In this document: positions 12,794 to 44,171 of the stretch, piece after piece
Layout: each line of letters begins with the position of its first letter
Numbering within the stretch: the stretch's first letter is position 1
Source of the DNA: Bacteroidaceae bacterium
GTDB lineage: Bacteria > Bacteroidota > Bacteroidia > Bacteroidales > Bacteroidaceae
Assembly (NCBI GenBank): GCA_045634305.1
Contig: JAZQZZ010000039.1
Location: 3,818-67,817 of the forward strand
Direction of reading: 5' to 3'
DNA: 64,000 bases
Position numbers and translations under genes: made by a program
Notes under the pieces: model-generated
What the model was told of the DNA's origin: nothing
The model's input: only the letters and a program-made list of their open reading frames with translations
Database searches by the model: none

Positions 12794-15481
12794 TCACAGC
12801 AACCTTGCGCTGTCGGCAATCATTGTGCGTACTGTATCGTTGAAGGCACGTTCCTGCATGAGCTGCTCAAGTGGTATGTGCATGCGGTAATTCCAGCAAT
12901 GGTCGCGGTTCGAGGGCACGTTGATGCGCTCATCGTCATAGCTGTCGCGGCGCAGACGCTCGTCCATAGCCATCCAGTCCTGCCATGCAAAGAGGGCAAA
13001 GGCCGATGGTGAAGCGAGATGTTGCGCAAGAATTGCCCGTGCTATGCGGCCGTCCATCTCAAGCGGAGCCTTGCCATCGAAGCCGAGCACGCAGTTGTAG
13101 AACTGCTGCGAGAGAGCCTCGTCCTCGCGCCACCAGCCACGCAAGGTGCTCATGTCGTGTGTCGACGGGGTTGCAACGGAGAGATAAGGGTAACACTCGG
13201 GACGTGCGAAAGTCTCGCCGTAAAGTTTCGGCATGCGCTGAATCTCGAGCGATAGCACCTGCAGGTTCTTCATCACCCAGGGCACACAAGCCGGTATCAT
13301 TCCCAAATCCTCGCCACAGGCAGTCATAGGCGTTGAAAGCAACAGCGGGGTAAGCTTGCGCATTCCCTCACGGTACCAGAACATTGTATGGCGGTTGTAG
13401 AAATAATCCTCATATATATGGTCATATGCTATACGCTCAGCCTGCGAAAGCTGTGCATAGGCCTCGGTATCGCCACCAAGAATACGCGGCACGAACATGG
13501 CAGGGTCGCCAAGGTCGCGCATGAAGAGCACATTGCCATAGATGCGTTGCACTGCGTCCTTCATCGCCTGCGGGAGCTTTGGCGTGCGCTCATATATGTA
13601 ATAGGCCAACAGGTTGGCATTCTCCATTTCGGGTTTGAAACGATAAGTGCCGTCGGGTCGTGCATCAAGGAAGGCCTCTACAATCTGCTTTACCTTGCGG
13701 GGGAAGTGTTTCTTGAGCAAAGCGTCATCGATATATGGTGCTGTGTGGCGCGCCTCGTCAAAAGCAAGACCTGCTGCAGCAATCTCATCGACCGACAATG
13801 GACGGTTAGGAGAGAAACTGCCGGCAAGGCCACTCTTGGCTGTGCGTGGGATTTCCCATATGCGGAAGAATCCGAGTATGTGGTCAATGCGATACGCATC
13901 GAAGAAGCACGACATATACTGCAGACGGCGGCGCCACCATGCGTAACCGTCACCGGCCATAACCTGCCAGTTGTATGTGGGGAAGCCCCAGTTCTGTCCA
14001 TCGGCTGCAAACATATCGGGCGGTGCACCTGCCGAAACCGAGAGGTTGAACTGCTCGCTGTCACACCACACATCGACACCGTTTGGAGCCACGCCAATGG
14101 GGATATCGCCCTTTAGCGCGACACCACGGCTGTTGGCATAGTCATGTGCTTGGGACAACTGCATGAAGAGCAGATACTGCACATAGCAGTGGAAACGCAT
14201 CTCTTTTACAGCATCGGGGTATTCAGCAACTACACGTTCCTCTGTTGTGCTGTCATAGTGCGAATACTCGCCCCAATCCCAAATGTTGCTGTGCAGACGC
14301 GACGAGAGGAAACGGAAGAGCGCATAGGGCCTGAGCCACTGCTGCTGTGCATCCTCAAAAGCACGATAGCCTTCGCTTGCAAGAACATCGCTGCCGACTT
14401 CGTCGAAGAGTTCGCGCAGGTAGTTTATCTTCAAGCGGTATACTTTTGCATAATCCACCGCCGGCAAAGCATTGAGTGTCTCGCGCTCCTTTTGGTAGAA
14501 AGCATTGCGGCGCGGCTTTGAAAGCGCGGGCAGCTGTGACATATCGGCGTATATGGGGTTCAACGCAAATACAGAAACGCAGTTGTAGGGATAGGAGTCC
14601 TCGCTACCGCCACGTACCGTGGTATCATTGACAGGCAACAGCTGGAGAATGTTCTGTCCCGTAGCCACCAACCAGTCGGTCATGAGTTTGATATCACCGA
14701 AATCGCCTATACCCCAACCATGAGCCGAACGCAGAGAGAAGAGCGGCATCACAGTACCGGCAATGCGTAACGAGGGTGCATCGAACGACAGAGCGTCGAG
14801 CTGATAGAAATAGTTTGTGCTCTGCTCGAAATCGGGTAGCAGGATATGACGGTTGTCGCCCGCCTCCCAACGCACATTGCCAGCCTCATCGATTGCTATG
14901 AACTTGTAGTTGAGCGCACCGCTCCACAACGTTGCCACGTCAAAAGTGACACTCCAACGGTTGGGTACACGTTGCTGCATCGGCAGAGCGCGTGCAGGTT
15001 CCCAAGCTCCGAGCACATCGGCATCGCCCACAAGATGAAGGCGCTCGCCGTTGCGCAGACCGGTCACATAGACCGAGAATGTGACACTGCGGTTATACCA
15101 GTTTATTGAAGGCTCGTCGAGCCTTGTCTCGTTCTTGTCAAAGAAACGGAAGAGATTTGTGCGACCATAACAGCCTGCAGGCGAATCGAGCCACATGTCG
15201 TACACGATATAATTGCGGTTCACACAATTGAAGCGTAGCGTGTGGGGTGTCCCGGCCCATTCGGTACACAGGCTCTTACCATCAAGGCGCAGTTCATAGC
15301 CGTAATTGATGTCGGCATAACGGTCTTCAACCTCGAGCGAGCATTGCCACCACCCTTTCTGCACCTGGCGCAACGGGAGTGAACTATCCACAATGTTGCC
15401 GTTATCACTTAGCCTGTAGCAAAGATGCACCGTAGCATCATCGCTGATATCGTATCTTATATTGAATTCTATAAAATGCAT
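12794..15481 (-). CDS. malQ: 4-alpha-glucanotransferase (GH77 amylomaltase) with long N-terminal extension
   Basis: 895-aa ORF with GH77 blocks LKGDIPIGV, SAGAPPDMFAADGQNWGFPTYNW, YRIDHILGFFRIWEIP, CGEDLGMIP and TPSTHDMSTLRGWW. Confidence 0.85.
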   Translation of the reverse strand: MHFIEFNIRYDISDDATVHLCYRLSDNGNIVDSSLPLRQVQKGWWQCSLEVEDRYADINYGYELRLDGKSLCTEWAGTPHTLRFNCVNRNYIVYDMWLDSPAGCYGRTNLFRFFDKNETRLDEPSINWYNRSVTFSVYVTGLRNGERLHLVGDADVLGAWEPARALPMQQRVPNRWSVTFDVATLWSGALNYKFIAIDEAGNVRWEAGDNRHILLPDFEQSTNYFYQLDALSFDAPSLRIAGTVMPLFSLRSAHGWGIGDFGDIKLMTDWLVATGQNILQLLPVNDTTVRGGSEDSYPYNCVSVFALNPIYADMSQLPALSKPRRNAFYQKERETLNALPAVDYAKVYRLKINYLRELFDEVGSDVLASEGYRAFEDAQQQWLRPYALFRFLSSRLHSNIWDWGEYSHYDSTTEERVVAEYPDAVKEMRFHCYVQYLLFMQLSQAHDYANSRGVALKGDIPIGVAPNGVDVWCDSEQFNLSVSAGAPPDMFAADGQNWGFPTYNWQVMAGDGYAWWRRRLQYMSCFFDAYRIDHILGFFRIWEIPRTAKSGLAGSFSPNRPLSVDEIAAAGLAFDEARHTAPYIDDALLKKHFPRKVKQIVEAFLDARPDGTYRFKPEMENANLLAYYIYERTPKLPQAMKDAVQRIYGNVLFMRDLGDPAMFVPRILGGDTEAYAQLSQAERIAYDHIYEDYFYNRHTMFWYREGMRKLTPLLLSTPMTACGEDLGMIPACVPWVMKNLQVLSLEIQRMPKLYGETFARPECYPYLSVATPSTHDMSTLRGWWREDEALSQQFYNCVLGFDGKAPLEMDGRIARAILAQHLASPSAFALFAWQDWMAMDERLRRDSYDDERINVPSNRDHCWNYRMHIPLEQLMQERAFNDTVRTMIADSARLL

Positions 15482-17836: not shown

Positions 17837-19561
17837 TTACCTCACAAACTCCACCTTGTGTAACGGTGCTCCATGGCGGTTGCGCACTGTAAGGGTGTAA
17901 CGTCCGGTTTCAAAACCCGACACATTGAATTCACGGCAATACCTGCCTGCATACACCTCGCGGCCATAGGTATCCTTTACAGCAATGCGTTGTCCCCACG
18001 AGCGTGGCTCGGGCAAAAGGATGACATCACCACGATGCATTCTGCCCCCGAATGCAGCCTGCACAAAAGCAGGCTCACTCTCCACACCGCAGGCATCCAC
18101 CGCAGTAACAGCCATTGTAATATTGTCGACACTGCGACAAGACCAGCGGAACAGCGTGTCATTCAGAGCTGTGGCAACAAGATTGTCAATGCGACAGATA
18201 TCGACTGTATCGCCTATAGCTGCATAGACATTATAATGTACAGTTGGAAAACCGGCGACAGGACGGACGGCATTCCACTTCAAGGAAACCCCACTTTCAT
18301 CACGCATGCAGCTTATTACCGACGGCGTCGACGGAGCATCGGCAATCCAATCCATCGGCGGCACAAGAGCGGGGGTATCATATATTTTTGTATAAATGTC
18401 GCGCACACCACCCGCATTGCCCAAAAGATGTGCCGTGCGGAACATCATGACACCGTTGGTGCCGGCACGGCGCGATGTGTGGAACTGTCTTTCAATCTCA
18501 ACCTGTGGCCAACCGCCATGCTCGGGCATCAGGCGATAGATACCTATTCCTGGCGCCACGTGACGGCCGTGGCGGTTCTCGCACCAGTCGAGCACGAAGG
18601 GATAGAAGTTGTTGCCATTGAAGTAGAGCATTGGGAAAAGGATATCCATGACACCATCATGCAACCACCCTTGAGCATCCTGATACACGGTGTTGTAGGC
18701 ATCCCATCCAAGCGAGCTGTAACGTGTGAGGTTGTCATACTTGCCAAGCGGCGCACAACTGACACGCACCCAAGGCTTCAGTTCCTTCACTGCCGAATAG
18801 ACCGATGTCACAATGCGGGTTATATTTGAACGGCGCCATGTTGCAAGTGACATGCGCCTGCCATGTCTCACAAAGAGTGAACCGTCGGGGTAACCCTCGA
18901 CACTATCAGGGTAACGTACATAATCGAGATGTATGCCGTCTACATCGTAGTTCCGAACTATCTCTTTGACAAGCGAAGCAATGTAGTCGGCCGTAGCAGG
19001 GTTGCCGGGTTCCATATACCATGCACCTTTGTAATGTGTACACAACGCTGAAGCCCTCCTTGGCAATGCACTCTTGCCCAGGCGCTTAACATACTCAACC
19101 TTGCCAAGCGGCATGGTAACCAGCCATGCGTGCAACTGCATGCCACGCTTGTGGCATTCATCAATGGCAAAGGCCAAGGGATCGTAGCCGGGTGATTTGC
19201 CGGTGATGCCGGTGAAGACATGCGAAAATGGTTCAATTGCCGATGGATATATGACATCGCCACGTACACGTGTCTGCAACAGCACGGTGTTGATGTGCAT
19301 GGCCCGTAAAGAATCAAGAATAACGGTGAGTTCCGCCTTCTGCTTTTCAACATCGGCCGGTGTCTTCACCTGCGAATGGGGCCAGTCAAGATTCTCTATT
19401 GTGGTGAGCCACACTGCACGGTATTCATATTTTGGCGAAGGGTGGCCCTTGCCATGATAATTCCCGATTTTGTATTCAAGTCCACTGTCATACACGCCAT
19501 TTTGCGCCACCGCAAAAAACGGCAGCAGCAGTAAAGTCATAAAACACAGCAACTTGTTCAT
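17837..19561 (-). CDS. Glycoside-hydrolase-like family 10 (YddW/DUF187-type) protein with T9SS-CTD-like tail
   Basis: Start chosen at the ATG at 19561 (MNKLLCFMTLLLLPFFAVAQ signal). Blocks YRAVWLTTIENLDWP and DVDGIHLDYVRYPD. The C-terminus RIAVKDTYGREVYAGRY...GRYTLTVRNRHGAPLHKVEFVR is sorting-domain-like. Confidence 0.6.
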   Translation of the reverse strand: MNKLLCFMTLLLLPFFAVAQNGVYDSGLEYKIGNYHGKGHPSPKYEYRAVWLTTIENLDWPHSQVKTPADVEKQKAELTVILDSLRAMHINTVLLQTRVRGDVIYPSAIEPFSHVFTGITGKSPGYDPLAFAIDECHKRGMQLHAWLVTMPLGKVEYVKRLGKSALPRRASALCTHYKGAWYMEPGNPATADYIASLVKEIVRNYDVDGIHLDYVRYPDSVEGYPDGSLFVRHGRRMSLATWRRSNITRIVTSVYSAVKELKPWVRVSCAPLGKYDNLTRYSSLGWDAYNTVYQDAQGWLHDGVMDILFPMLYFNGNNFYPFVLDWCENRHGRHVAPGIGIYRLMPEHGGWPQVEIERQFHTSRRAGTNGVMMFRTAHLLGNAGGVRDIYTKIYDTPALVPPMDWIADAPSTPSVISCMRDESGVSLKWNAVRPVAGFPTVHYNVYAAIGDTVDICRIDNLVATALNDTLFRWSCRSVDNITMAVTAVDACGVESEPAFVQAAFGGRMHRGDVILLPEPRSWGQRIAVKDTYGREVYAGRYCREFNVSGFETGRYTLTVRNRHGAPLHKVEFVR

Positions 19562-19631
19562 AATTAAAATTAAATTATCACAAAAGTAGTCATTTTTATG
19601 CCATTTTTTAAATGTATTTCCAAATATTTTG

Positions 19632-19639
19632 TACATTTG
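19632..19639 (+). promoter_or_regulatory. Bacteroidetes -7 box (TACATTTG) upstream of nifJ
   Basis: Matches the TAnnTTTG consensus 97 nt upstream of the ATG at 19736. Confidence 0.4.
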
Positions 19640-19735
19640 CGATTACGACCGCTTTATCAGCCACACATCATCAAACAAATACCATGGCAAAAAGCGTTTC
19701 ATTCAATGCAAAATAGACAAATAAATAATTGCTTT

Positions 19736-22700
19736 ATGACAAAGACTAAGAAATTCATTACTTGTGACGGAAATCAGGCAGCGGCACATGTCGCCTACAT
19801 GTTTTCCGAGGTAGCAGCCATCTACCCTATCACACCATCATCAACAATGGCTGAATATGTTGACGAATGGGCTGCCCAGGGCCGCAAGAACCTTTTCGGC
19901 GAGACCGTAATGGTGCAGGAGATGCAGTCAGAGGGTGGTGCCGTTGGTGCACTGCACGGTTCACTGCAGGCAGGTGCCTTGACAAACACCTTCACAGCTT
20001 CGCAGGGTCTGCTGCTCATGATTCCAAACATGTACAAGATTGCCGGCGAGAAGTTGCCAACTGTGTTCCACGTATCGGCACGTTCGCTTGCGGGTAACTC
20101 ACTCAGTATCTTCGGCGACCACATGGACGTTATGGCCTGCCGCCAGACAGGTTTTGCAATGCTGTGCGAGGGCTCGGTACAGGAGGTCATGGACCTTGCT
20201 CCGGTTGCACACCTTGCAACATTGAAGAGCCGCATCCCATTCCTCAACTTCTTCGACGGTTTCCGCACATCGCACGAGATTCAGAAGATCGAACTCCTTG
20301 AACAGGAGGACATCGCTCCACTCGTTGACTGGAAGTACATTCAGGAGTTCCGCGACAGAGCGTTGAGCCCTACACACCCCGTTGTACGCGGTACAGCCGA
20401 GAACCCCGAGACATTCTTCACACACAAGGAGAGCGAGAACCCATTCTACAACGCTGTTCCCGACATCGTTGCCGAATACATGGATAAGATTTCAGCCATC
20501 ACAGGCCGCAAATATGCTCCATTCACATACTATGGTGCCGAGGATGCCGACCGCGTAATCGTTGTCATGGGCTCTGCTACCGAGGCTATCAAGGAGGCTA
20601 TCGACTACATGATGGCACGTGGCGAGAAGGTTGGTCTGGTGAGCGTTCACCTCTACCGCCCATTCTCAGTGAAGTACCTTGCAGCCGTAATGCCAAAGAC
20701 AGTGAAGCGCATTGCAGTGCTCGACCGCACAAAAGAGCCGGGCAGCAACGGCGAGCCTTTGTACCTGGATGTTGTCGAGGCATTCTCAAGCACACCCGAA
20801 CTGAGAGAGCTTAACCCCACAATCGTGGGCGGACGTTTTGCATTGGCTTCAAACGACACAACCCCGGCCATCATCATGGGTGTATATGAGAACCTTGCAT
20901 TGCCCGAGCCAAAGAACCACTTTACAATCGGTATCGTTGACGACGTCACATTCCTTTCACTCCCCAAGAAAGAGGAGTTGGCGGTTGTTGACGGCATGTT
21001 CGAAGCCAAGTTCTATGGTCTTGGTGCCGACGGTACAGTGGGTGCAAACAAGAACTCTGTAAAAATCATTGGCGAGAACACACAGAAATATTGCCAGGCA
21101 TACTTCTCATACGACTCAAAAAAATCGGGCGGTTTCACCTGTTCGCACTTGCGTTTCGGCGACAAGCCAATCCGCAGCACATACCTTGTGAACACTCCTA
21201 ACTTTGTAGCTTGCCACGTACAGGCATACCTGAAGATGTACGATGTGACACGCGGTTTGCAGAACGGCGGTACATTCCTGCTGAACACCGTTTGGGAAGG
21301 CGAGGAGCTTGCAAAGAACCTGCCTAACAAGGTAAAGAGATGTTTTGCCGAGAAGAATATCAACGTATACTACATCAACGCAACCAAGATTGCACAGGAG
21401 ATTGGTTTGGGCAACCGCACCAACACAATCCTGCAGAGTGCATTCTTCCGCATCACAGGCGTCATCCCTGTAGAGCTTGCCGTTGAGCAGATGAAGAAGT
21501 TCATCGTGAAGTCTTATGGCAAGAAGGGCCAGGATGTGGTTGACAAGAACAATGCAGCCGTTGACCGCGGTGGCGAATACCAAAAGCTTGTCATTGACCC
21601 CGCATGGGCCAACCTGCCCAATGACGTCGAGGAAAAGCGCGACGAGCCCGAGTTCATCACAAAGATTGTGCGCACCATCAACGCACAGGAGGGTGACAAG
21701 CTCCCTGTATCGGCATTCAAGGGACTCGAGGACGGTACATGGCCTGTAGGCACATCGGCTTATGAGAAGCGCGGAGTGAGCGCATTCGTCCCCAGATGGA
21801 ATGCCCAGAACTGTATACAGTGTAACCGTTGTGCATTTGTCTGTCCACACGCATCCATCCGTCCAATAGTAATGGATGAGCAGGAGGCTGCCGGCATGAA
21901 TGCCGACATGATTGAGATGAAGGCACCTGCAGCCATGAAGGGCATGCACTTCCGCATTCAGGTGAGCGTGCTCGACTGTCTTGGTTGCGGCAACTGTGCC
22001 GACATCTGCCCCGGACATCCAAAGACCGGCAAGGCTCTTACAATGGTGCCGCTGGAGGAGGAGAGACACGAGGCTGCAAACTGGGATTACTGCGCGAAGA
22101 ACGTGAAGAGCAAGCAGCACCTTGTTGACGTGAAGAGCAACCCGAAGAACTCGCAGTTCGCTACTCCACTCTTTGAATTCTCGGGTGCTTGCTCGGGTTG
22201 TGGTGAGACACCATACGTCAAGTTGCTTACACAGCTCTTTGGTGACCGCGAGATTGTTGCCAACGCAACAGGCTGTTCTTCAATCTACACAGGTTCAGTA
22301 CCTTCAACACCTTATACAACCAACGAGAAGGGCGAAGGTCCTACATGGGCCAACTCATTGTTCGAGGACTTCTGCGAGTTCGGTTTGGGTATGAAGCTTG
22401 CCGAGAACAAAATGCGCGAGCGTCTTGAAAGACTCTTCACCGAGGTTCAGGCATGTGCCGGCTGCAGCGAGGAGCTCAAGGCTCTTGTACAGAGATGGAT
22501 TGAAAACAAGAACAACGCCGAGGTGACAAAGGAGGTTGCTCCTGCCATCATCGAGGCTTGCGAGGCTTGCGGTTGCGACACATGCAAACAGATTCTCGAC
22601 ATCAAGCAGTACATTGTCAAACGCTCACAGTGGATTATCGGTGGCGACGGTGCATCGTACGACATCGGTTACGGTGGTCTTGACCACGTCATCGCATCGG

Positions 22701-23296
22701 GCGAGGATGTGAACATCATTGTCCTTGACACCGAGGTTTACTCTAACACCGGTGGTCAGTCATCAAAGGCAACACCTCTTGGTGCAATTGCCAAATTTGC
22801 GGCATCGGGTAAGCGCATACGCAAGAAAGACCTTGGTATGATTGCCACAACATACGGCTATGTATACGTTGCACAGATTGCAATGGGTGCAAGCTACGAC
22901 CAGTGTCTCAAGGCTATCCGTGAGGCCGAGGCCTACCCCGGTCCATCATTGGTAATTGCATATGCTCCATGTATCAACCACGGTATCAAGCGCGGTATGG
23001 GCAAGGCACAGGCCGAGCAGGCTGCAGCCGTTGAGTGCGGTTACTGGCACTTGTGGCGCTACAACCCTGCATTGGAGGAAGAGGGCAAGAACCCATTCAC
23101 ACTCGACAGCAAGGAGCCACAGTGGGAGAAGTTCCAGGAGTTCCTGCAGGGCGAGGTGCGCTATGCTGCACTTGCAAAGCAGTTCCCAGCCGAGGCAAGC
23201 GAACTGTTCAATGCTGCCGAGGAGATGGCCAAAAAGCGCTACGCAAGCTATGAGCGCATGGCAAAGCTCGACTGGGGCAAGGAAGATGCTGAGTAA
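19736..23296 (+). CDS. nifJ: Pyruvate:ferredoxin (flavodoxin) oxidoreductase
   Basis: About 1186 aa from the ATG at 19736 (MTKTKKFITCDGNQAAAHVAY). Two 4Fe-4S motifs, CIQCNRCAFVCPH and CLGCGNCADICP. TPP region GGDGASYDIGYGGLDHV and VLDTEVYSNTGGQSSKATP. Confidence 0.9.
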   Translation: MTKTKKFITCDGNQAAAHVAYMFSEVAAIYPITPSSTMAEYVDEWAAQGRKNLFGETVMVQEMQSEGGAVGALHGSLQAGALTNTFTASQGLLLMIPNMYKIAGEKLPTVFHVSARSLAGNSLSIFGDHMDVMACRQTGFAMLCEGSVQEVMDLAPVAHLATLKSRIPFLNFFDGFRTSHEIQKIELLEQEDIAPLVDWKYIQEFRDRALSPTHPVVRGTAENPETFFTHKESENPFYNAVPDIVAEYMDKISAITGRKYAPFTYYGAEDADRVIVVMGSATEAIKEAIDYMMARGEKVGLVSVHLYRPFSVKYLAAVMPKTVKRIAVLDRTKEPGSNGEPLYLDVVEAFSSTPELRELNPTIVGGRFALASNDTTPAIIMGVYENLALPEPKNHFTIGIVDDVTFLSLPKKEELAVVDGMFEAKFYGLGADGTVGANKNSVKIIGENTQKYCQAYFSYDSKKSGGFTCSHLRFGDKPIRSTYLVNTPNFVACHVQAYLKMYDVTRGLQNGGTFLLNTVWEGEELAKNLPNKVKRCFAEKNINVYYINATKIAQEIGLGNRTNTILQSAFFRITGVIPVELAVEQMKKFIVKSYGKKGQDVVDKNNAAVDRGGEYQKLVIDPAWANLPNDVEEKRDEPEFITKIVRTINAQEGDKLPVSAFKGLEDGTWPVGTSAYEKRGVSAFVPRWNAQNCIQCNRCAFVCPHASIRPIVMDEQEAAGMNADMIEMKAPAAMKGMHFRIQVSVLDCLGCGNCADICPGHPKTGKALTMVPLEEERHEAANWDYCAKNVKSKQHLVDVKSNPKNSQFATPLFEFSGACSGCGETPYVKLLTQLFGDREIVANATGCSSIYTGSVPSTPYTTNEKGEGPTWANSLFEDFCEFGLGMKLAENKMRERLERLFTEVQACAGCSEELKALVQRWIENKNNAEVTKEVAPAIIEACEACGCDTCKQILDIKQYIVKRSQWIIGGDGASYDIGYGGLDHVIASGEDVNIIVLDTEVYSNTGGQSSKATPLGAIAKFAASGKRIRKKDLGMIATTYGYVYVAQIAMGASYDQCLKAIREAEAYPGPSLVIAYAPCINHGIKRGMGKAQAEQAAAVECGYWHLWRYNPALEEEGKNPFTLDSKEPQWEKFQEFLQGEVRYAALAKQFPAEASELFNAAEEMAKKRYASYERMAKLDWGKEDAE

Positions 23297-23320
23297 AGCA
23301 TAAAAGAGCCATAATATATG

Positions 23321-23358
23321 AACGAGGACGCATTTTTAGAAATGCGTCCTCGTTTTTT
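23321..23358 (+). terminator. nifJ Rho-independent terminator
   Basis: aacgaggacgcattt-ttag-aaatgcgtcctcgtt followed by tttt. Confidence 0.7.
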
Positions 23359-23478
23359 CCAATATCCAAACAACTGCTTGCCCAACCGCGTCCAAAAATC
23401 AAAATAATGGGCACATTGGAACATCTTTTTCTTGACAATCCAATACTTAAAGCTTATATTTACGGCGTGGTTAAATAA

Positions 23479-23676
23479 ATTCAAATAAACATTAATCACC
23501 CTAAATATGGCATATGGTTGGAGAAAACATCACATTCAAAAGAATCATATAAATACAACAAAAAATGGGAAAATTTATTTAAGGAATTTGAAAAAAACAA
23601 TAGCAAACCATCAACCGAAGAGATAGAACTCTTTATGAAACAGGTTATGAAAGAGACTTTCAATATTGACTTATAA
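23479..23676 (+). pseudogene. 3' remnant of a toxin tip, possibly HNH/AHH-type nuclease
   Basis: Start-less frame ..INHPKYGIWLEKTSHSKESYKYNKKWENLFKEFEKN..FNIDL-stop ends 14 nt before the next ATG. The G-x-W-L...H...Y pattern recalls the C-terminal half of HNH-superfamily toxins. Confidence 0.3.
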
Positions 23677-23690
23677 CTTATAATTGATTT

Positions 23691-24389
23691 ATGACACTTA
23701 AAGACTTTTACGAATTTAATAGCAGAAACTATTTGACAACATTTGCTGTAAAATCTGACATCTGGAAGGAAGCATTGAAGAGAAAGAACTCAGAATTGGC
23801 TAGGAAAATCAGCTGGGACCTTGAACTTGGTAACTACGAAGGATATGAATTCCCTATAGTATTCCGCGAGGTTGCCGGAGAAAGCGGCAAGCAAATGCGT
23901 GATGTTCTTGACAATCGCAATATTAGAACATACCTTATCTCGGACAGAATGAGAGATCTTCTTATTGACAACAACATTACCGGTTGGGAATGTTACGAGA
24001 TTGAGATGTATGATAAGAAGGGGAATATTGTTTCTGGATACAACGGCTTCTCTGTCACAGGTAAATGTAATGATATGGTAAAGATTGACTTTGAAAACAT
24101 AATTAAAGATAAAAAGAGGGACTATTTCGAGGCCAAGGGTGCTATGTTCGACATTGAAAAATGGGACGGCAGTGATATTTTCAGGGCTGGTGGATGGAGA
24201 ATCATTACAAAGAAAGTGTATGAACTGTTCAAAAAGCATAAAATAACTGCAATAGAAATGACCAGAATGACAGATTATACATGCTGGTTAGGCTACACCA
24301 AGGAGCAGGCACTCGAAAATTCAATCAGGGAGATAGAAAGGCAAAATGAACGTTGGGAAGAATTTAAAGCAGAGATGCATTTGGGGTGA
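23691..24389 (+). CDS. Immunity-protein-like ORF (DUF1629/Imm11-like by eye)
   Basis: 232 aa with no signal peptide. It sits directly after a toxin-tip remnant. The block WDGSDIFRAGGWRIITKKVYELFKKHKITAIEM resembles polymorphic-toxin immunity families. Confidence 0.4.
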   Translation: MTLKDFYEFNSRNYLTTFAVKSDIWKEALKRKNSELARKISWDLELGNYEGYEFPIVFREVAGESGKQMRDVLDNRNIRTYLISDRMRDLLIDNNITGWECYEIEMYDKKGNIVSGYNGFSVTGKCNDMVKIDFENIIKDKKRDYFEAKGAMFDIEKWDGSDIFRAGGWRIITKKVYELFKKHKITAIEMTRMTDYTCWLGYTKEQALENSIREIERQNERWEEFKAEMHLG

Positions 24390-24408
24390 AATCTAAATAA
24401 TTGTAAAG

Positions 24409-24540
24409 CAAGGACTATCTTGGCAGTATGCGCTCATTCCGCGATTCTCTACAATGGACCCGCTGGCCGAGAAGTACTATCACCTATCGCCCTACGCCTA
24501 CTGCGCCGGCGACCCGGTGAACCTTGTGGATCCGGACGGA
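24409..24540 (+). repeat. Rhs core-end homology block, copy 1
   Basis: The GC-richer 132 bp encode KDYLGSMRS (one frame) and DPLAEKYYHLSPYAYCAGDPVNLVDPDG (another frame). About 88% identical to 26466..26597. Confidence 0.75.
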
Positions 24541-24825
24541 ATGTGGTTTGTAAAGGTTAGCGCTTCGTCAAATAGGGGAAAAAATCCATATGCTTTATAT
24601 TCTGTTTATGATAGGCATGACAATTTGATATATAGAACTGTTGTAAAAGTTAGAGGAGCTAATGGCAGAGATAGAACTAAAACGAACTCAGATACCCCCA
24701 CTGGTAAATATCGAATTGTTGAATGGAGAAAAACTGGTAATGCAAATTATCCGATGAAATGGTGGCTTTTTGACATTAATAAATGTTATTCTAAAACAGT
24801 AATATTATGCATACTATTCTATTGA
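24454..24825 (+). CDS. Orphan Rhs-type C-terminal toxin tip (core-end motif plus about 95-aa variable domain), possibly truncated
   Basis: MDPLAEKYYHLSPYAYCAGDPVNLVDPDG is the canonical Rhs-associated core end (PxxxxDPxG). There is no upstream Rhs repeat body. The variable part contains TPTGKYRI. Confidence 0.6.
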   Translation: MDPLAEKYYHLSPYAYCAGDPVNLVDPDGMWFVKVSASSNRGKNPYALYSVYDRHDNLIYRTVVKVRGANGRDRTKTNSDTPTGKYRIVEWRKTGNANYPMKWWLFDINKCYSKTVILCILFY

Positions 24826-25376
24826 TATTGTATTGTTCTGTTATGATAGAGTATAATAATCCTATTAGATTTGATTTAGACAATCTTGACATAAAGATAG
24901 ATACTGTATATTGCAAACAAAATCAATATAGTGATTTTTTGCTAAAAGAACTTGGAAAGAATGCTAAGGATATGAATGATATGCAGCGTAGTGATTATGT
25001 GGTGAAGATGCTTGCTGTACCCGATAGCTCATTCTTGAAAGGTGAAGACTTTATTATATTTGTAAACTACTTGCAAGGAAAACGTTCTGAAGAGTACTCT
25101 GAAGGCATTGGATATTATCTTATGCGTATATACAAAGAGTATATACCGAAAATTAATGAAGTTGAAAAATGTGTGGATTTATTGCCTCTAAAGATGAAAG
25201 AGGAAGCTTTGAAAGGATTATGCGAGGTCTTGTTCTTTGAATATTCAATAGAAGAATCAATAAATGATACTATAAAAAGATGTGAAATTTATAAAGAACT
25301 ACCCATATTAAAGAAATATGAAAAGATGACAGAAGAAATAGCTCATCAGGCAGGGTATGTGCTAGTTGATAAATAA
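24807..25376 (+). CDS. Candidate cognate immunity protein (possible lipoprotein)
   Basis: 189 aa, overlapping the toxin-tip stop. The N-terminus MHTILLILYCS is lipoprotein-signal-like. AT-rich. Confidence 0.4.
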   Translation: MHTILLILYCSVMIEYNNPIRFDLDNLDIKIDTVYCKQNQYSDFLLKELGKNAKDMNDMQRSDYVVKMLAVPDSSFLKGEDFIIFVNYLQGKRSEEYSEGIGYYLMRIYKEYIPKINEVEKCVDLLPLKMKEEALKGLCEVLFFEYSIEESINDTIKRCEIYKELPILKKYEKMTEEIAHQAGYVLVDK

Positions 25377-25623
25377 TTAATGATTTTGATATTAAAGTTG
25401 ACAGGAACTTGAAAAATAGTCAAAGGCACGAGTTTGTCATTTTGAAGAATGACACATAAAGAAAATGTTCCAAAATGGGTTAGACAACGCTTTGCCGCTA
25501 CAATACAATATATGAATGAGAAAGGAACATCATGGATCTTTAAAAAGTTACAGGATTCTTAAAGTTTATTATATTGGATATGCCGTTAATCAATAGTTCG
25601 TTAATTTAAAGAAATGAATTAAT

Positions 25624-26394
25624 ATGAAACGTCTCGTTGCTTTTATAGTGACTATTGTGTTATTTTTACCTTATTCTAATGCTCAAAAAATGAGTACCAA
25701 GGATACAAAAGAAGCAATAATATCTGCAATAGAATTCTGCAATGGTATATCTACGCACGATGGATGCTTTTCATATAATATAGTAATGATATACGAAAGC
25801 TTTTTTAACGACAAAGTGGCCACAGACATTTTTGTTAATGAACTTAATAGAAATAAGTCGGATATATTTTTTTATAATTCCAGAAAAACTCTTAAGAAAA
25901 AGAACAAGGAAATTAAAAGAAGTTGGTTTATCTTCTATTATGGCGAGATTGACACTAACAGAATTGAGATAGTATTAAGTGATTGCATTTATAATGGGAA
26001 GAAGACCCTAATTAATCCAGATGGAGAAACTATTGTATGCAGTAAGTCTGCTATTACAGGTAAATGGCACATTGTACACCATTTTTTTATATACCGAATG
26101 GGACGTGAATTCCGTAATACAGATTACTCTTTATTAACGAGGCAACTATATGATAACCTATTGCATAAGAAACTTAAAACAGAGAACGATTATATGTTGC
26201 TTTTCAATTATCTTCGCAAGCGAGATGTTAGCGAATATTATATTAAAATAAAAGAGTTGCTTTGTAGCATAATAGACGAGAATCCAGAGGTTGCAGAACG
26301 TATTGACAACTATTTTTTCCTGTTTGCAAAATTTAGAATGATCGATGAGAGCACTTCTGTAATTGAAGGGAACTATAAAAATATAACTAAATAG
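25624..26394 (+). CDS. Exported hypothetical protein (orphan immunity candidate)
   Basis: 256 aa with signal peptide MKRLVAFIVTIVLFLPYSNAQ. No recognisable catalytic motif. Confidence 0.4.
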   Translation: MKRLVAFIVTIVLFLPYSNAQKMSTKDTKEAIISAIEFCNGISTHDGCFSYNIVMIYESFFNDKVATDIFVNELNRNKSDIFFYNSRKTLKKKNKEIKRSWFIFYYGEIDTNRIEIVLSDCIYNGKKTLINPDGETIVCSKSAITGKWHIVHHFFIYRMGREFRNTDYSLLTRQLYDNLLHKKLKTENDYMLLFNYLRKRDVSEYYIKIKELLCSIIDENPEVAERIDNYFFLFAKFRMIDESTSVIEGNYKNITK

Positions 26395-26420
26395 TGGAGA
26401 TAGCTACATATATATTTGCT

Positions 26421-26612
26421 GAATGACACCACTCTGCAGCCCGAGGTAAAACCATACTTCTTTGTCAAGGACTATCTTGGCAGTATGCGCTCATACCGCG
26501 TTTCTCCACCATTGACCCCTTGGCCGAGAAGTACTACCACCTCTCGCCCTACGCCTACTGCGCCGGAGACCCGGCGAACCTTGTAGACCCGGACGAGTTG
26601 ATAGGAATCTGA
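26421..26612 (+). pseudogene. Rhs core-end remnant lacking a toxin domain (contains homology block copy 2, 26466..26597)
   Basis: ..LQPEVKPYFFVKDYLGSMRSYR in one frame, then IDPLAEKYYHLSPYAYCAGDPANLVDPDELIGI-stop in another. The stop falls 4 codons after the DPD motif. Confidence 0.65.
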
Positions 26613-26692
26613 GAAATAACAAACAACATGAAATAGTTATCAAACAAAATGACCCGAATTCAATTTTTAAATCTATAATTATTAATTAATCT

Positions 26693-27268
26693 ATGATTCA
26701 ATGCGAACTTTATTTGGTTAAGAGCGATATTAACAAGGTTTTTGATTATTTTAAAGAGAGTGCACGAGGTCAGTGGGGATTCGAGTTTCAATACACGGAT
26801 GTTAATTTACATTTATGCTTACCTCTCGTTTCTCACTCTGTATATACAAAAATACTCTTGTGGGTACCTAAAGGACATAACGGAACAGTAATCTTTTCAA
26901 ATAGAGACATCTATACGTTGATTTATATCTTAAACAAAACTTATAATTTTGACATTACAGGAATAATGTTAGATTTGGATTTACCCGGCAAAGATCTTTA
27001 TTTACCATGTTATTATTTTCAGCATTGGGGAGTGGACAATAGTTTTAGAATAGTGAGAGTAATGTGTGATCCAAGATGGGTGTTCTATGAACAGGGAGAA
27101 AGCTTCCCTTTCGAACAGACCGACAAATACACCGAGCGAATAAAGAAAAAACGCCTTACAAACGATATGATAAAAGACTATGTAACAGCAATGGGATGGA
27201 ATATAAGAGATGAGGGATTCTTTGATTCGGATAACGAAGCCATTCTTATAACAATTAAAGGAAGGTGA
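26693..27268 (+). CDS. Hypothetical protein (orphan immunity candidate)
   Basis: 191 aa, cytoplasmic, AT-rich, directly after the tip-less Rhs remnant. Confidence 0.35.
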   Translation: MIQCELYLVKSDINKVFDYFKESARGQWGFEFQYTDVNLHLCLPLVSHSVYTKILLWVPKGHNGTVIFSNRDIYTLIYILNKTYNFDITGIMLDLDLPGKDLYLPCYYFQHWGVDNSFRIVRVMCDPRWVFYEQGESFPFEQTDKYTERIKKKRLTNDMIKDYVTAMGWNIRDEGFFDSDNEAILITIKGR

Positions 27269-27543
27269 AATTGTATAAAGAATGTTATTGGATAAAGTTC
27301 GACAACAGCAAATGGTCACGCGAAGCTGCGACAAAGTTGCAGCCACGTGGGTTGCAAAAAGTTGCTGTTGTCAAAGCTCGACTGGAGCAAAGAAGATGCT
27401 GAGTAAAGCATAAAAGAGCCATAACATATGGACTAGGACGCATTTTTTGAAATGTGTCCTAGTTAATTTTTGTAATACCGCAAACCAACGATACTGTAGC
27501 TGTGTTATCACTCATATTTCGTAACCTTTAAAACAGGATAACT

Positions 27544-29001
27544 ATGTCTACATTAACAAAAACCGTAAAAATGGGTGTGGCGACATTGGCAATCATGAAC
27601 GTCACAGCTGTCGTGTCGCTGCGCGGATTGCCAGCCGAGGCCGAATATGGAATTAGTTCGGCATTCTATTATCTGTTTGCTGCACTTGTGTTCCTTATTC
27701 CAACATCGTTTGTGGCAGCCGAACTTGCAGCAATGTTCCAGGACAAGCAAGGTGGTGTGTTCCGCTGGGTGGGCGAAGCGTTCGGCAAACGTCTAGGCTT
27801 TGTCGCCATATGGCTGCAGTGGGTTGAGAGTACCATATGGTACCCCACAGTATTGACCTTCGGTGCCGTGTCGCTCGCGTTCATTGGAATGAACGACACT
27901 GCCGACATGTCACTGGCGTCGAACAAGTTCTACACCCTTGTGGTGGTGCTTGCCATCTACTGGATTGCAACATACATCTCACTCAAGGGACTCGGTTGGG
28001 TGAGCAAGGTGGCAAAGGTGGGCGGTCTAATAGGTACCATCATACCGGCTGCGTTGCTTGTGTTGCTTGCCATCATCTACCTGATTGGCGGCGGCAAGTC
28101 GCAGATGGACTTCGGAGGTGACTTTTTCCCGGACATCACAAAACTCGACAACCTTGTGCTCGCATCGGGAATATTCCTTTTCTATGCCGGAATGGAGATG
28201 ACCGGTATTCACGTGAAGGACATGGAGAACCCCAGCAAGAACTACCCGAAGGCGGTGTTCTTGGGTGCCATAATAACAGTGCTCATCTTTGTACTTGGCA
28301 CATTCTCACTTGGCATCATCATTCCACAGAAGGACATAAACCTCACACAGAGCCTGCTCGTTGGCTTTGACAACTACTTCAAGTTCATAAGGATGTCGTG
28401 GTTGTCGCCAATCATTGCCATAGCGCTTGCATTCGGTGTGCTTGCGGGAGTGCTCACGTGGGTATCCGGTCCATCAAAAGGTATTTATGCTGTGGGAAAA
28501 GCCGGTTACCTGCCGCCGTTCATGCAAAAGAGCAACAAGCTTGGCGTGCAGAAGAACATCCTGCTCATTCAGGGCGGCGTGGTAACACTCTTGAGCCTGC
28601 TGTTCGTAATCATGCCATCGGTGCAGAGTTTCTATCAGATTCTGTCACAGCTCACAGTGCTGCTCTATCTTATAATGTACCTTCTTATGTTTGCTGCAGC
28701 CATCTATCTGCGCTATAATATGAAGGATGCACCACGCCCATTCCGTCTGGGCAAGAGCGGAAACGGCCTCATGTGGCTTGTTGCGGGTGTGGGATTCCTT
28801 GGCAGTTTGCTTGCCTTTGTGCTCAGTTTCATTCCACCGGCACAGATTGCCGTGGGAAGCAACGCGGTGTGGTATGCAGTACTCATAATAGGCTGTATTG
28901 TGGTGACAGGTGCACCGTTCGTCATCTATGCAATGCGTAAACCACATTGGGTTGACAAGGATTCACAGTTCGAGCCTTTCCATTTTGAGAAACAGAAATA
29001 A
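27544..29001 (+). CDS. APC-superfamily amino-acid permease (YjeM/GadC-like)
   Basis: 485 aa with about 12 TM segments. The N-terminal block AIMNVTAVVSLRGLPAEAEYG is typical of glutamate/GABA-antiporter-like APC members. Confidence 0.7.
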   Translation: MSTLTKTVKMGVATLAIMNVTAVVSLRGLPAEAEYGISSAFYYLFAALVFLIPTSFVAAELAAMFQDKQGGVFRWVGEAFGKRLGFVAIWLQWVESTIWYPTVLTFGAVSLAFIGMNDTADMSLASNKFYTLVVVLAIYWIATYISLKGLGWVSKVAKVGGLIGTIIPAALLVLLAIIYLIGGGKSQMDFGGDFFPDITKLDNLVLASGIFLFYAGMEMTGIHVKDMENPSKNYPKAVFLGAIITVLIFVLGTFSLGIIIPQKDINLTQSLLVGFDNYFKFIRMSWLSPIIAIALAFGVLAGVLTWVSGPSKGIYAVGKAGYLPPFMQKSNKLGVQKNILLIQGGVVTLLSLLFVIMPSVQSFYQILSQLTVLLYLIMYLLMFAAAIYLRYNMKDAPRPFRLGKSGNGLMWLVAGVGFLGSLLAFVLSFIPPAQIAVGSNAVWYAVLIIGCIVVTGAPFVIYAMRKPHWVDKDSQFEPFHFEKQK

Positions 29002-29081
29002 GGAAATAATAAGCAGTAAAAACGAGGCGTTTGCCTCGTTTTTCTTTTTTTGCTATCTTCGCAATCAACAACCCAAATACT

Positions 29082-31293: not shown

Positions 31294-32262
31294 TCAAAAA
31301 GCGGACACGGCACGCACATTGTCGTCGCTGAACTTATTGCAGTCGATGGTGCCGCCATACTTCATACCGACATTCCACGCACAAAACTCTTTATTAGATT
31401 CCGTAGAAGACCATAAGAAACGTCCTAATGTTACAGCCTTAATTTTACTCAAGCTTTCATTTATTATATCACGCTTTTCGCATATGGACAGAAGCTCTTC
31501 TTTTGCCGGTAAATACCAACCTTCGCCTTTAGTAGCACACCAAGCAAAAGCAGGATAATTTGTTTCCCAATTGGATTGTTTTTTTATCTTGTTAAAGTTA
31601 CTCATTCCATCGTCATGGGATGTTGCATCAGTTTTTCTTTTATAAACATCCACTACTGCCCATGACAAGCCTTTACTCTCATCAAGGCTTACAATCTTTC
31701 CATGCTTGCCATCGGCAGTAACATCAAAGACTATGCCCTGTTTGCCGTTTTCATCATACAAGTCACCTATTTTATAGGTTTTCGAAGCAGTGTGAACATC
31801 AACCTTCTTGGTTGTCTTTCTTTCGTTATTCAGCAATGCTTCACCGATAAAAGATTCAGAACCATACCAATCCCCGATATTACGGAGCAGTTTGTCGTAC
31901 TGCATCGGGACTTTTATATCAATATAATCGACCGACCCGAAGAAGAAGAGGAACCAACCACGCAGTTTACCGCCATCAACAACCACCGGAACAATTTTCT
32001 TGCCAGTATTACGCGCATAGTCTATTTCTCTTCTTGCGAACTCCGATGCCATGGAATTGTCCGACAAGATAAACAGTACTGTATCTACTCTATCAATGGC
32101 ATTTATAATGACGTCGACAAACTGGTCGCCACTTTCAATACCATTCCAATCCACCCAGCAACGGGCATTCGTCTTTTCGTGGATATCATCGACCAAGCAC
32201 TTTACAACATCCATGTCGGCACGGCTGTAACTTACAAAAATGTCGTATTTTTCATTTCTCAT
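31294..32262 (-). CDS. TIR-domain protein fused to a DUF1566 (Lcl C-terminal-like) domain
   Basis: 322 aa. The N-terminus YDIFVSYSRADMDVV...ILSDNSMASEFARREIDYA is a classic bacterial TIR. The C-terminus GWYLPAKEELLSI...LWSSTES...AWNV...VRAVSAF matches DUF1566. Visibly AT-rich single-gene insertion. Confidence 0.75.
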   Translation of the reverse strand: MRNEKYDIFVSYSRADMDVVKCLVDDIHEKTNARCWVDWNGIESGDQFVDVIINAIDRVDTVLFILSDNSMASEFARREIDYARNTGKKIVPVVVDGGKLRGWFLFFFGSVDYIDIKVPMQYDKLLRNIGDWYGSESFIGEALLNNERKTTKKVDVHTASKTYKIGDLYDENGKQGIVFDVTADGKHGKIVSLDESKGLSWAVVDVYKRKTDATSHDDGMSNFNKIKKQSNWETNYPAFAWCATKGEGWYLPAKEELLSICEKRDIINESLSKIKAVTLGRFLWSSTESNKEFCAWNVGMKYGGTIDCNKFSDDNVRAVSAF

Positions 32263-37842: not shown

Positions 37843-38478
37843 ATGGGATTTTTTAATTTTTTCAAGAAGAAAGACAAAAACGCCGAGCATCGCATTGGCG
37901 GCATGGAGGACTTCATGACCCTCATACGCGTATACTATCAGGCAGCCATGGCAGCTAACATTGGTATAACCAACATCAACATGTTGCCCGACCTTGCAAC
38001 CTTCAAGCGTACCCTGAAGGTGCCCACACAGAACAACAAGCTTGGCGTGGGCGAGCGTAGCAAGTGCAAGAAGATGCTCGAGCAGCTATACAAACTCGAC
38101 GAGAGTTTCTTCAAGGAGATTGACAACTCAATAAAGAAGAACTGCAAGAAGATACAGGATGCACAGCCATTCCTCTTTGCATTCCAGGGCTTCAACAATG
38201 ACCTCATGATGCTTGTGGGCAACCTGCTCAAGTGGAAGTTCCGCGTGCCGGGCTTCATGCACAAGCTCCTGCACAGCATGACCGAGAAGATTGTCAACGA
38301 CATCTTCACCAAGAACAACTGGAAGGATGAGGCCACATTCCGCACGGTATACTCGGTGCGCAACTACAACGATAAACTCGGCTACTCACAGGCATGGATT
38401 ACAGAGTACGTGTACAAAATCATCACACTCGCCAAGAAAGAGCCACGCAAGAACATGGAGGACACCGAAAAGAAATGA
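37843..38478 (+). CDS. Hypothetical cytoplasmic protein
   Basis: 211-aa ORF with good coding character, followed by a strong terminator. No motif recognised. Confidence 0.5.
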   Translation: MGFFNFFKKKDKNAEHRIGGMEDFMTLIRVYYQAAMAANIGITNINMLPDLATFKRTLKVPTQNNKLGVGERSKCKKMLEQLYKLDESFFKEIDNSIKKNCKKIQDAQPFLFAFQGFNNDLMMLVGNLLKWKFRVPGFMHKLLHSMTEKIVNDIFTKNNWKDEATFRTVYSVRNYNDKLGYSQAWITEYVYKIITLAKKEPRKNMEDTEKK

Positions 38479-38484
38479 CATTGG

Positions 38485-38517
38485 CAGAGGCTCAAAATTT
38501 TGAGCCTCTGTTTTTTT
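38485..38517 (+). terminator. Rho-independent terminator
   Basis: cagaggctca-aaattt-tgagcctctg followed by ttttttt. Confidence 0.75.
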
Positions 38518-38530
38518 AGCAAAGAACAGC

Positions 38531-39715: not shown

Positions 39716-39736
39716 CCAACCCCAACCCGCAAAGTT

Positions 39737-42700: not shown

Positions 42701-42844
42701 GCAGCCGGCGCTACAGGCATTGACAGGATGACTGAGCAAAGAACAGAGAGCACAGAGATTCACGACCTCACAGGCCGCCGTGTAGAAACCATCACAGCTC
42801 CCGGCGTTTACATTATAAATGGGAAAAAGAGAGTTGTAAAGTAA
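39737..42844 (+). CDS. LamG-domain / GH18-like glycosidase, T9SS cargo
   Basis: 1035 aa with a signal peptide. LamG-type block GNWAHITLLLDGNSLSMLVNN...GRMDEVRMW. GH18 catalytic motif DGVDYDFEW (DxxDxDxE; Glu codon at 41429..41431). The C-terminus EIHDLTGRRVETITAPGVYIINGKKRVVK is T9SS-CTD-like. Confidence 0.7.
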   Translation: MKRYAIALLMLFASLGTTAQVTNNAISFERNGRVSLGTPHNSGANVTTLQLWINPQHWIPGANIITWGNSLNMQLGTPGELIIESNGDTLSFSDTKLTTGNWAHITLLLDGNSLSMLVNNANRQDRTLSAAFATPTAEPMLLGGGFLGRMDEVRMWDFILPADYNRFWNNTIDSFNPLWSHLTGYWKFDQTRLESNVYDYSGKGHNGTFSASGVERTPVTDNPDFVYRRNLAYADCSRFFDRGVQHGQYLKSNVISIIGATAQADGSLKYKQPDNKGSITGGIYLAEHNGRTGVLDLAGNGAQMNVGKDALIAYNNSNYLASTTAYTFMTWLSIDTWTPGAYLLIKESDTNNGISLRMGNAQGEFILRCNGLEFTYATTLQLNKWHHIGFSTNATTLGNEFVVVFDETIVTPTYSHTTAATTTLTGLRSTDCIIGAGIDGKLDETITWSQKFGASDIVAQGNTPVEPGIGKAITGAYSRSVDGMWKYDIAEDLGRDSYSTPEWFRMIKATFEGYEGAHVTISIDKWSDEFFTKINNNAQYREALANAISQMGNEPFLDGVDYDFEWNNNWSGIGTLCQLVRAKLHDGKIQAVSPHELYYNFPTDKMQYVDYFNFQDYGPGNKNIFNFNNYKNFFTKAKSYGYPVEKIMLSYATTTSGAMYSNGSRPANTHPEFYPTGWRSMPYETFEYSQNSYDVGDGLTRYFTGMEQVWLRSEYMNNNGCAGIFYWDMGNDTRDCNDPRSLATYASFAINSNVQKIVEKIETAAEAPAEYEYEESATGYYRIRGAGDGHTTHYLYQNGDELYSGEKGGEVRSIFCFEEAAESNTFYLKANDGRYIQDRSKLQTKQSIYRFDTTPVSYSIKGEEYDYPEGHYCLEQTYYTPGKPDFTDVQRCLKCNGNNEGASTWGPWTAASHWAIEPVYGYDVYTVTLADIDAITCLIPGYTGSNMIYNGGFIVLTAGGEITADEIAAASGEEITVSIDKNAKSIAVAAGATGIDRMTEQRTESTEIHDLTGRRVETITAPGVYIINGKKRVVK

Positions 42845-42891
42845 CACAGTCCCAAACAAGGAGCCCCTCTCCACCTGAACGCAACAGCCCC

Positions 42892-43479: not shown

Positions 43480-43497
43480 AATAAAAAATAACAAAGT

Positions 43498-44147: not shown

Positions 44148-44171
44148 TAACAAACTAATAAAAAATAATAT

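Follow-up and report, generated by a model that had tools for sequence, protein, structure and literature searches.

A disarmed allele of a strain-variable Rhs toxin locus behind nifJ in a bovine-gut Bacteroidaceae species

Introduction

The subject of this work is an AT-rich interval of about 4.1 kb in a 64,000-nt stretch of contig JAZQZZ010000039.1 (assembly GCA_045634305.1, positions 3,818 to 67,817), here called the window, from a Bacteroidaceae bacterium. The interval lies between nifJ, which encodes a pyruvate:ferredoxin/flavodoxin oxidoreductase, and the gene of an APC-family amino-acid permease. It holds fragments of Rhs toxins together with immunity-like genes and is flanked by two diverged copies of the 3′ end of nifJ. 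The comparisons below firmly show it to be the disarmed allele of a strain-variable Rhs (YD-repeat, DUF6443-type) polymorphic-toxin locus of a bovine-gut Bacteroidaceae species. Equally firm is that the site is empty in related species, that its cargo varies, that no recombinase is on board and that the right end of the island has moved between lineages. A decayed Rhs locus whose flanking repeats arose through recombinational displacement of the nifJ tail is, taken as a whole, the best explanation, and is held with a confidence slightly better than even.

Several described systems resemble this locus in part. The element e14 and phage 21 integrate at the 3′ end of icd in E. coli and leave a diverged duplicate of that end; they encode an integrase and can excise. 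As in these elements, the end of the housekeeping gene is intact at the nifJ locus and a diverged copy stands on the far side of the insert. In contrast to them, a search of the window and of the complete island of a conspecific strain found no recombinase, and the breakpoints in other lineages lie at more than one site.

Orphan arrays of Rhs C-terminal (Rhs-CT) and immunity modules were reportedly explained by C-terminal displacement in the work of Jackson et al. in 2009. The formation of such arrays by C-terminal displacement is also treated by Poole et al. (2011, PMC3150448). The modules of the window likewise start with a core end of about 130 nt (...PYAYCAGDPVNLVDPDG), followed by a variable tip and a small open reading frame (ORF). 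The array is strain-variable, and on contig L171 it stands directly behind full-length genes, a 1136-aa RHS and a 1094-aa DUF6443 gene. Unlike the described arrays, that of the window has no rhs gene and is fused to the upstream region of the operon behind a housekeeping gene, and the displacement would also have duplicated the tail of the neighbouring nifJ.

For the immunity arrays of type VI secretion system (T6SS) and Rhs loci, homology-facilitated illegitimate recombination has been proposed, with effector displacement in V. cholerae as the example (Kirchberger et al. 2017, PMC5361080). The proposed history of the nifJ locus shares with it a homology anchor in the upstream gene, an illegitimate join at the far end, an old 3′ end shifted downstream and later spread by ordinary homologous recombination. 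It differs in that the anchor would be a gene of central metabolism, nifJ, that the displaced piece carries a working terminator, and that the junction falls at the foot of a hairpin.

In Bacteroidales, recombinase-associated acquired interbacterial defence clusters are known as rAID-1 (Ross et al. 2019, bioRxiv 10.1101/471110). The islet behind nifJ is similar to rAID-1 in being an AT-skewed cluster of orphan immunity-like genes with toxin remnants, and apparently in having repeats between the cassettes, and its likely function is defence against the toxins of kin. It is unlike rAID-1 in that no XerD-family recombinase is found beside the cluster or in the 64-kb window and in having nifJ as upstream neighbour. 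Furthermore, its only intergenic repeats are Rhs core ends, and the cluster can be shown to derive from an offensive locus.

A disarmed allele of a complete Rhs locus

A 100-kb contig of a conspecific strain (L161/L171/L176) carries a 191-aa protein identical to that encoded by the last cassette of the window, and its flanks are 97.9% identical to the window. Between nifJ and the permease gene, L171 contains in order a 384-aa gene, a 1136-aa RHS-repeat protein, a 1094-aa DUF6443 protein and eleven cassettes, with ORFs of 257, 63, 382, 132, 174, 31, 102, 189, 256, 179 and 191 aa. This Rhs locus of 15.2 kb is bounded by the same two repeats as the islet of the window (L171 5210-5321 and 20420-20536), and a full Rhs locus between these repeats is present in L171, L176 and L172. 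No mobility or recombinase gene was found in the complete 15-kb island of L171. No homologue was detected for the 384-aa gene that opens the Rhs operon, so that the island cannot be followed into other species.

The window is colinear with L171 from 18054 to 23484 (L171 1-5434, 97.9% identity), and the first gene of L171 starts at 5436. The Rhs operon upstream region (23375..23484, + strand) is thus retained without its operon up to one base before the start of the 384-aa gene. Past 23484 the window continues as the last third of the intact 212-aa AHH tip of L163, followed by the same 232-aa ORF. The intact tip consists of an Rhs core end and an AHH domain (Pfam PF14412, E 0.002), and the AHH tail of the window is 97.5% identical to L163 1750-1943. 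The colinearity with L171, followed by a jump into an orphan AHH tail, identifies the window as a disarmed, immunity-only deletion allele. The start-less tail of the AHH-type nuclease toxin (23485..23676, + strand) comprises the last ~64 codons and lacks the catalytic AHH motif, with the deletion junction at 23484/23485. An identical junction occurs in L177, from another sample, where window 18000-24539 corresponds to L177 8261-14796 at 97.6%; the disarmed allele is therefore real and shared.

These comparisons show that one illegitimate deletion in the lineage of the window removed the whole segment that begins with the first start codon and ends midway through the AHH tip, and that three to four orphan immunity-like genes were kept behind the upstream region of the old operon. 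The original prediction, of a 4.1-kb islet that arrived as such with the repeats as its bounds, has to be replaced on both points: the interval is a deletion derivative of the ~15-kb Rhs locus at the same site in L171, and there the repeats enclose the entire Rhs locus. The search for alternative cargo at this position, which had been suggested along with the prediction, found differing content in conspecific strains. Cassette content varies among L161-L170 and four bovine-gut metagenomes, and the right end is constant. Among the differences are an insert of 3 kb, a replacement of 629 nt and a stretch of 293 nt missing from the window alone.

The locus is a natural single-junction example of an offensive toxin locus decaying to a purely defensive islet, with both alleles present within one gut species. 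The order of tip followed by immunity gene is seen in the AHH tip with its 232-aa ORF, intact in L163, and in homologues of the 191-aa protein in other Rhs arrays; neutralisation is a prediction from gene order. The bacterium would no longer attack by means of this locus, yet would presumably be protected against kin that bear these toxin tips.

Flanking repeats and terminators

A local BLAST search finds 23259-23354 repeated at 27369-27464 over 96 nt, with 91% identity and 9 mismatches (E = 1.4e-30). The recurrence of 23262..23354 at 27372..27464 with 8 mismatches in 93 nt had been predicted and is correct, and the repeat is longer than that. In a gapped alignment with two or three small indels the homology reaches 23374 and 27489 (116/121 nt). 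The repeat thereby spans the last 12 nifJ codons with the stop, the terminator, and the start of the intergenic region up to an AACCAAC box. This box, upstream of the permease gene, is kept by all relatives and has diverged in the left copy.

The left repeat (DR-L, 23259..23374, + strand) holds the working nifJ tail, the stem-loop of terminator 1 (23320-23355), the intergenic start and the diverged AACCAAC box. The right repeat (DR-R, 27369..27489, + strand) holds the displaced nifJ pseudo-tail (27372-27406) and terminator 2 (27431-27464), followed by native intergenic sequence that includes the AACCAAC box. Translation of the right copy gives SKLDWSKEDAE-stop against KLDWGKEDAE-stop in nifJ, in agreement with the earlier reading of the two ends. 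In a scan of every nifJ locus, a second copy of the nifJ tail was detected in the window alone; a short, diverged copy in L006 was noticed by eye and alignment.

Terminators 1 and 2 are hairpins of 15-16 bp with folding energies of -24.6 and -21.0 kcal/mol (z about -8). Their stems, CGAGG/CCTCG and CTAGG/CCTAG, differ by a true double compensatory change from G-C to U-A. The remaining two stem differences result in G.U pairs, such that all pairs are preserved; folding thus bears out the earlier claim that the changes are compensatory and that both hairpins are intact. Within the repeats, a block of 32 nt is perfectly identical (23282-23313 and 27392-27423), and the arms on both sides of it are diverged. 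The block includes the sequence ATGCT-GAGTAA-AGCAT (23286-23301 and 27396-27411), a 5-bp inverted repeat with a 6-bp spacer which spans the nifJ stop. Other small palindromes lie across the nifJ stop in L001 and L081.

Empty sites and exchange between lineages

A scan with the nifJ C-terminus, with one genome per species, returned the clade of the window, uncultured Bacteroidaceae of ruminant and other animal guts. The proposed check for empty sites is answered by eight related species in which nifJ is followed directly by the permease gene with a spacer of 130-300 nt (L001, L002, L003, L005, L006, L008, L045 and the metagenome contig L081). On the nifJ tree the window groups with L171, then with L002, and then with the pair L001 and L081; L005, L006, L008 and L009 form the sister clade. 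Species with an empty site surround the window on this tree. The sequence behind terminator 2 (TTAATTTTTGTAATACC...AACCAAC...) aligns with the nifJ-permease spacer of the empty-site contig L081, which indicates that the right repeat continues into native DNA. A metagenome scan with the nifJ C-terminus found a single close relative, L081, empty at the site, and exact look-ups of the permease and nifJ proteins of the window gave no match. In the related species L004 (1807-5056, - strand) another AT-rich cluster on the opposite strand replaces the permease gene behind nifJ; it consists of a 372-aa toxin-like ORF between two paralogous membrane-anchored ORFs of 323 and 324 aa.

The right end of the island has spread between lineages. 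In sliding comparisons, L163 is ~100% identical to the window from 26656 to about 27555 and then 85-90% identical in the permease and GH92 genes. For L170 the identity is 99.7% across the last cassette, the hairpin arms and the pseudo-tail, until 8 nt past the pseudo-tail stop. Beyond that point the terminator is another one, of the L081 type, and identity in the permease gene is about 88%. A near-identical right end in two lineages with permease genes diverged by 10-13% shows that this end was spread by recombination; at a background divergence of 10%, 45 identical nucleotides are unlikely to have been retained by descent. The breakpoints lie in the right repeat (L170) or in the permease gene (L163), and in both lineages the pseudo-tail travels together with the island.

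An island with its repeats could instead be ancestral to the clade, in which case the empty sites would be secondary losses between the repeats and nothing would have been inserted in the lineage of the window. Repeats of ~120 nt can recombine and erase an island cleanly, and the arrangement in L006, a hairpin next to a pseudo-tail, resembles a deletion scar between two TAAAG(T) microhomologies. On the nifJ tree, however, this history demands at least four or five independent clean losses. The two terminators of the window are more alike mutually than either is to the terminators of L081 or L170, from which it follows that the copies split after the L081 and L170 lineages had diverged. The empty sites of L001, L002 and L081 carry lineage-specific terminators with no trace of a second allele, and near-identical right ends in diverged lineages speak for recent transfer. 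Ancestral presence is accordingly regarded as very improbable.

The original prediction held that the islet was delivered by recombination and brought its own allele of the nifJ end, with attL/attR-like borders. Recombination and decay are upheld, as the locus is decayed and the pseudo-tail crosses lineages in L170 and L163, which would suit an islet that carries its own allele along; the exchange itself may have been of att type or by homologous or illegitimate recombination. If the repeats were attL and attR of an integrase-less island, a tyrosine recombinase acting in trans would have crossed over in the 32-nt block, and the island would have carried a replacement nifJ 3′ end. This would suit direct repeats with a perfect 32-nt core and diverged arms, a core with a 5-bp inverted repeat and 6-bp spacer, the L170 breakpoint at this block, and the same junction in another clade, in L006.

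Several observations make the att interpretation unlikely. There is no recombinase in the window or in the complete L171 island, and the L163 breakpoint lies in the permease gene, outside the repeat. Homology extends to both sides of the putative core, which a gene-restoring attP would not need, and a 5-6-5 palindrome within 32 nt is only weakly improbable by chance. The sole candidate excision joint (23280 to 27458, contig X5, depth 3.3, side 28) does not match the repeat offset of 4110 nt. Metagenome contigs break inside the identical 32-nt block and so cannot show excision. No attP-like match was found in plasmids, phages or IMG/VR.

A structured hairpin at the right junction

A conserved hairpin, overlooked by the original prediction, forms the actual right junction of the island. 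It lies directly 5′ of the right repeat (27296..27376, + strand; GACAACAGCAA...TTGCTGTTGTC) and is ~80 nt long with a core at 27307-27361. Three helices are stacked in the structure, which also has a bulge of two nucleotides (NA) and one G.U pair that never varies; its fold has a z of -7.7. The right repeat begins within the 3′ foot of the hairpin (...TTGTCAAAG), and the same foot end is found in independent copies (L171b, L081). At the position of the junction nifJ reads GGCAAAG followed by CTCGAC. The sequence CAAAG is common to the hairpin foot and nifJ, and the junction therefore falls in a microhomology of 5 nt.

Covariation over nine distinct copies is consistent with a conserved structure: 93% of cells pair, 10 of the 18 pairs are changed on both sides, and none of 500 shuffles equals this. 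The G.U pair is present in 9/9 copies. All copies lie in sense orientation, with a stop codon before and an intrinsic terminator behind them, and the invariant G.U pair with the fixed orientation points to a function as RNA or as the single-stranded DNA (ssDNA) of that strand. Matches to a covariance model were restricted to this clade in 2.6 Mb of nifJ loci. The hairpin is a candidate for a new motif, either of 3′ untranslated regions or associated with recombination, with covariation that is unusually strong for so few copies. No relevant Rfam match was found at E up to 1 (window 22800-28000) or up to 10 (L005 12800-13250), and plasmids, phages and IMG/VR contained no match to the hairpin or the repeat. 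An identity as an integron attC site was rejected by eye, since the classical boxes RYYYAAC and GTTRRRY do not fit the hairpin arms. Regulation of the permease by the hairpin is unlikely as the transcript contigs of that gene start downstream of it, at 27535-27547. The hairpin is covered by one contig at a depth of 2.3, so an abundant small RNA is also unlikely.

REP/REPIN-type palindromes occur as many dispersed copies per genome and have an associated RAYT transposase. The hairpin occurs once in the 64-kb window, twice in about 33 kb of the contig of L171 and as two tandem copies in L005. The L005 copies (12936-13097) are about 93 nt apart, each with its own long outer stem. The second hairpin on the L171 contig is a diverged copy carried by a ~270-nt insert behind the permease stop (22055-22330) which resembles a miniature inverted-repeat transposable element (MITE) with perfect 19-bp terminal inverted repeats (AACGTGAGTTCGATATAAG). 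The insert is absent at window 29001-29031, and the metatranscriptome contig X25 (loose end 29002) shows the same insert as L171. In L170 the interior stem is wholly unlike that of the window and equal to the post-permease copy of L081, which suggests conversion between hairpin copies.

In a profile search, L081, L001 and L005 have copies behind the permease stop (two in tandem in L005), and this position may be ancestral. In the window and in L006 the hairpin is upstream of the permease gene and none is found downstream. L006 has a homologous hairpin without cargo, between the nifJ stop and a second, diverged nifJ tail (KLDWSTETAE-stop). These positions bring in a local tandem duplication of the segment from the nifJ tail through the terminator and permease to the hairpin, joined at CAAAG, in which the Rhs locus later replaced the first permease gene. 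Such a duplication would produce the hairpin-to-tail junction in one step. It also requires extra steps, namely loss of the second hairpin in two clades and an exact replacement of the first permease gene. By alignment, the sequence 5′ of the window hairpin has no convincing homology to permease 3′ ends. The 9% divergence of the repeats and the joint transfer of pseudo-tail and cassette to L170 require recombination in any case, and a tandem duplication is a remote prospect.

Proposed mechanism

Under recombinational displacement, donor DNA with the 3′ part of nifJ and the island would have recombined homologously inside the resident nifJ. The far end would then have joined illegitimately at the 5-nt CAAAG microhomology between the hairpin foot and resident nifJ codon -11, pushing the resident nifJ tail and its terminator downstream. 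The flanking repeats would thus arise in the same way as the internal Rhs core-end repeats. The features of such an insertion are present: an anchor in nifJ, the CAAAG microhomology, and a tail and terminator of the resident type retained as the right repeat. The pseudo-tail could afterwards serve as a portable right homology arm, by which the island would enter related genomes behind nifJ through homologous recombination and without a recombinase. Both terminators may be under selection, one to end nifJ transcripts and the other to insulate the permease gene.

On this account, the process of Rhs-tip displacement can duplicate the tail of a neighbouring housekeeping gene and so leave a built-in homology arm. 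This arm appears to carry the island across lineages 10-13% apart without a recombinase.

Some points weigh against displacement. The founding event is inferred rather than seen. The same hairpin-to-pseudo-tail junction exists without cargo in L006 of the sister clade, and needs either descent from a shared ancestor followed by several losses, a transfer from one clade to the other, or a site-specific join that recurs. This junction is the main unexplained point, and can be read as a deletion scar between the TAAAG(T) microhomologies. The 32-nt block with its 5-6-5 palindrome at the L170 breakpoint would suit the core of a tyrosine recombinase. Finally, the immunity role is assigned by gene position, and the islet is almost unexpressed in metatranscriptomes.

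A further, doubtful possibility gives the hairpin an active part. Together with the pseudo-tail it would form a recombinase-free module of capture and spread, in which the hairpin, as an undescribed RNA or ssDNA element, makes or attracts the illegitimate joint. The pseudo-tail, from a universally conserved gene, would be the portable arm by which the island settles behind nifJ in any related genome, regardless of the sequence downstream, and L006 would represent an empty docking site or a scar.

Composition of the islet

All features of the islet are on the + strand. The GC content of 23375-27300 is 0.343. No equally long window elsewhere in the 64 kb falls below 0.389 (mean 0.473, sd 0.033), and the predicted AT-richness relative to the flanks is thereby borne out. 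Within the islet, GC-rich sequence is confined to the two Rhs core-end blocks (0.59-0.60) and the hairpin (0.51). ORF and family analysis also agrees that toxin-tip fragments and immunity-like ORFs are its only content. No integrase, transposase, recombinase or RHS domain is present among the ORFs of at least 150 aa in the whole window, and no DUF6443 gene was found in the 64 kb; the earlier statement that there is no integrase holds for these ORFs as it does for the L171 island.

The upstream boundary is formed by nifJ (19736..23296, + strand), which encodes 1186 aa with the start used in L171 and has an open frame from 19598. Its Pfam domains are POR_N, POR, EKR, PFOR_II, TPP_enzyme_C and Fer4. 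The AHH tail is followed by the 232-aa immunity-like ORF (23691..24389, + strand), which is directly behind the AHH tip in the window, L163 and L177. This ORF has a weak match to Imm11 (E 0.002), under the Pfam cut-off.

Orphan module 1 (24409..24825, + strand) contains a Rhs core-end block (24409-24538, GC 0.59) and a toxin tip that a 293-nt deletion at 24755/24756 has broken; the missing 293 nt are present in L171 and in 4/4 bovine-gut metagenomes. Beyond the gap, the 102-aa ORF of L171 has a weak YkuD match (E 1e-4). A 189-aa immunity-like ORF (24807..25376, + strand) is placed behind the toxin tip; the same gene is found in L171 and it has no family match. The 256-aa ORF that follows (25624..26394, + strand), also with no family match, is a candidate exported immunity protein with a signal-like hydrophobic segment at the N-terminus. 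Orphan module 2 (26466..26612, + strand) contains a core-end block (26466-26595) and a tip that ends right after DPD; its stop-to-stop frame ends in ...PYAYCAGDPANLVDPDELIGI and a stop codon.

The two core-end blocks form a 130-nt repeat (D1), 90% alike, and match the tail of TIGR03696 (Rhs-associated core) with E 2e-5. As no more than the last 29 residues are present, the match stays under the curated cut-off. A 22-nt segment of nifJ (21764-21785) is 86-91% complementary to 24428-24449 and 26485-26506, at the starts of the core ends (inverted repeats I3 and I6), which may be chance.

The last cassette (26656..27268, + strand) has a fixed left edge, as the homology to L163, L165-L168 and L170 begins at 26656 in every case. 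Its 191-aa immunity-like ORF (26693-27268) encodes a protein identical on 13 contigs, and homologues sit within Rhs arrays elsewhere (L173). The downstream boundary is the APC-family permease gene (27544..29001, + strand; Pfam AA_permease_2, E 2e-61), the ancestral downstream neighbour of nifJ.

Transcription

In three gut metatranscriptomes, contigs of nifJ have a depth of about 1000, which falls to 0 just behind terminator 1. The depth of the islet is 0-4, and permease contigs begin at 27535-27547. Contig depth measures expression only crudely, and the strains in the samples may differ from that of the window.

Other genes in the window

Behind the GH92 gene, an AT-richer patch (GC about 0.41) holds a 322-aa gene with TIR_2 and Lcl_C-terminal domains (31294-32262, - strand). 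The conspecific contigs L161 and L162 contain two tandem paralogues in place of this single gene, and the patch is possibly a small variable defence islet. Further downstream, ORFs with no family matches (37843-46208) precede a 977-aa Tubulin_2 (tubulin-like) protein and a 1167-aa papain-type peptidase C1 protein (46246-52691, + strand). Near the start of the window (172-7228, - strand), two neighbouring genes encode large peptidase M60 (enhancin-like) proteins of 909 and 1315 aa, the second with a ricin-type lectin domain as well.

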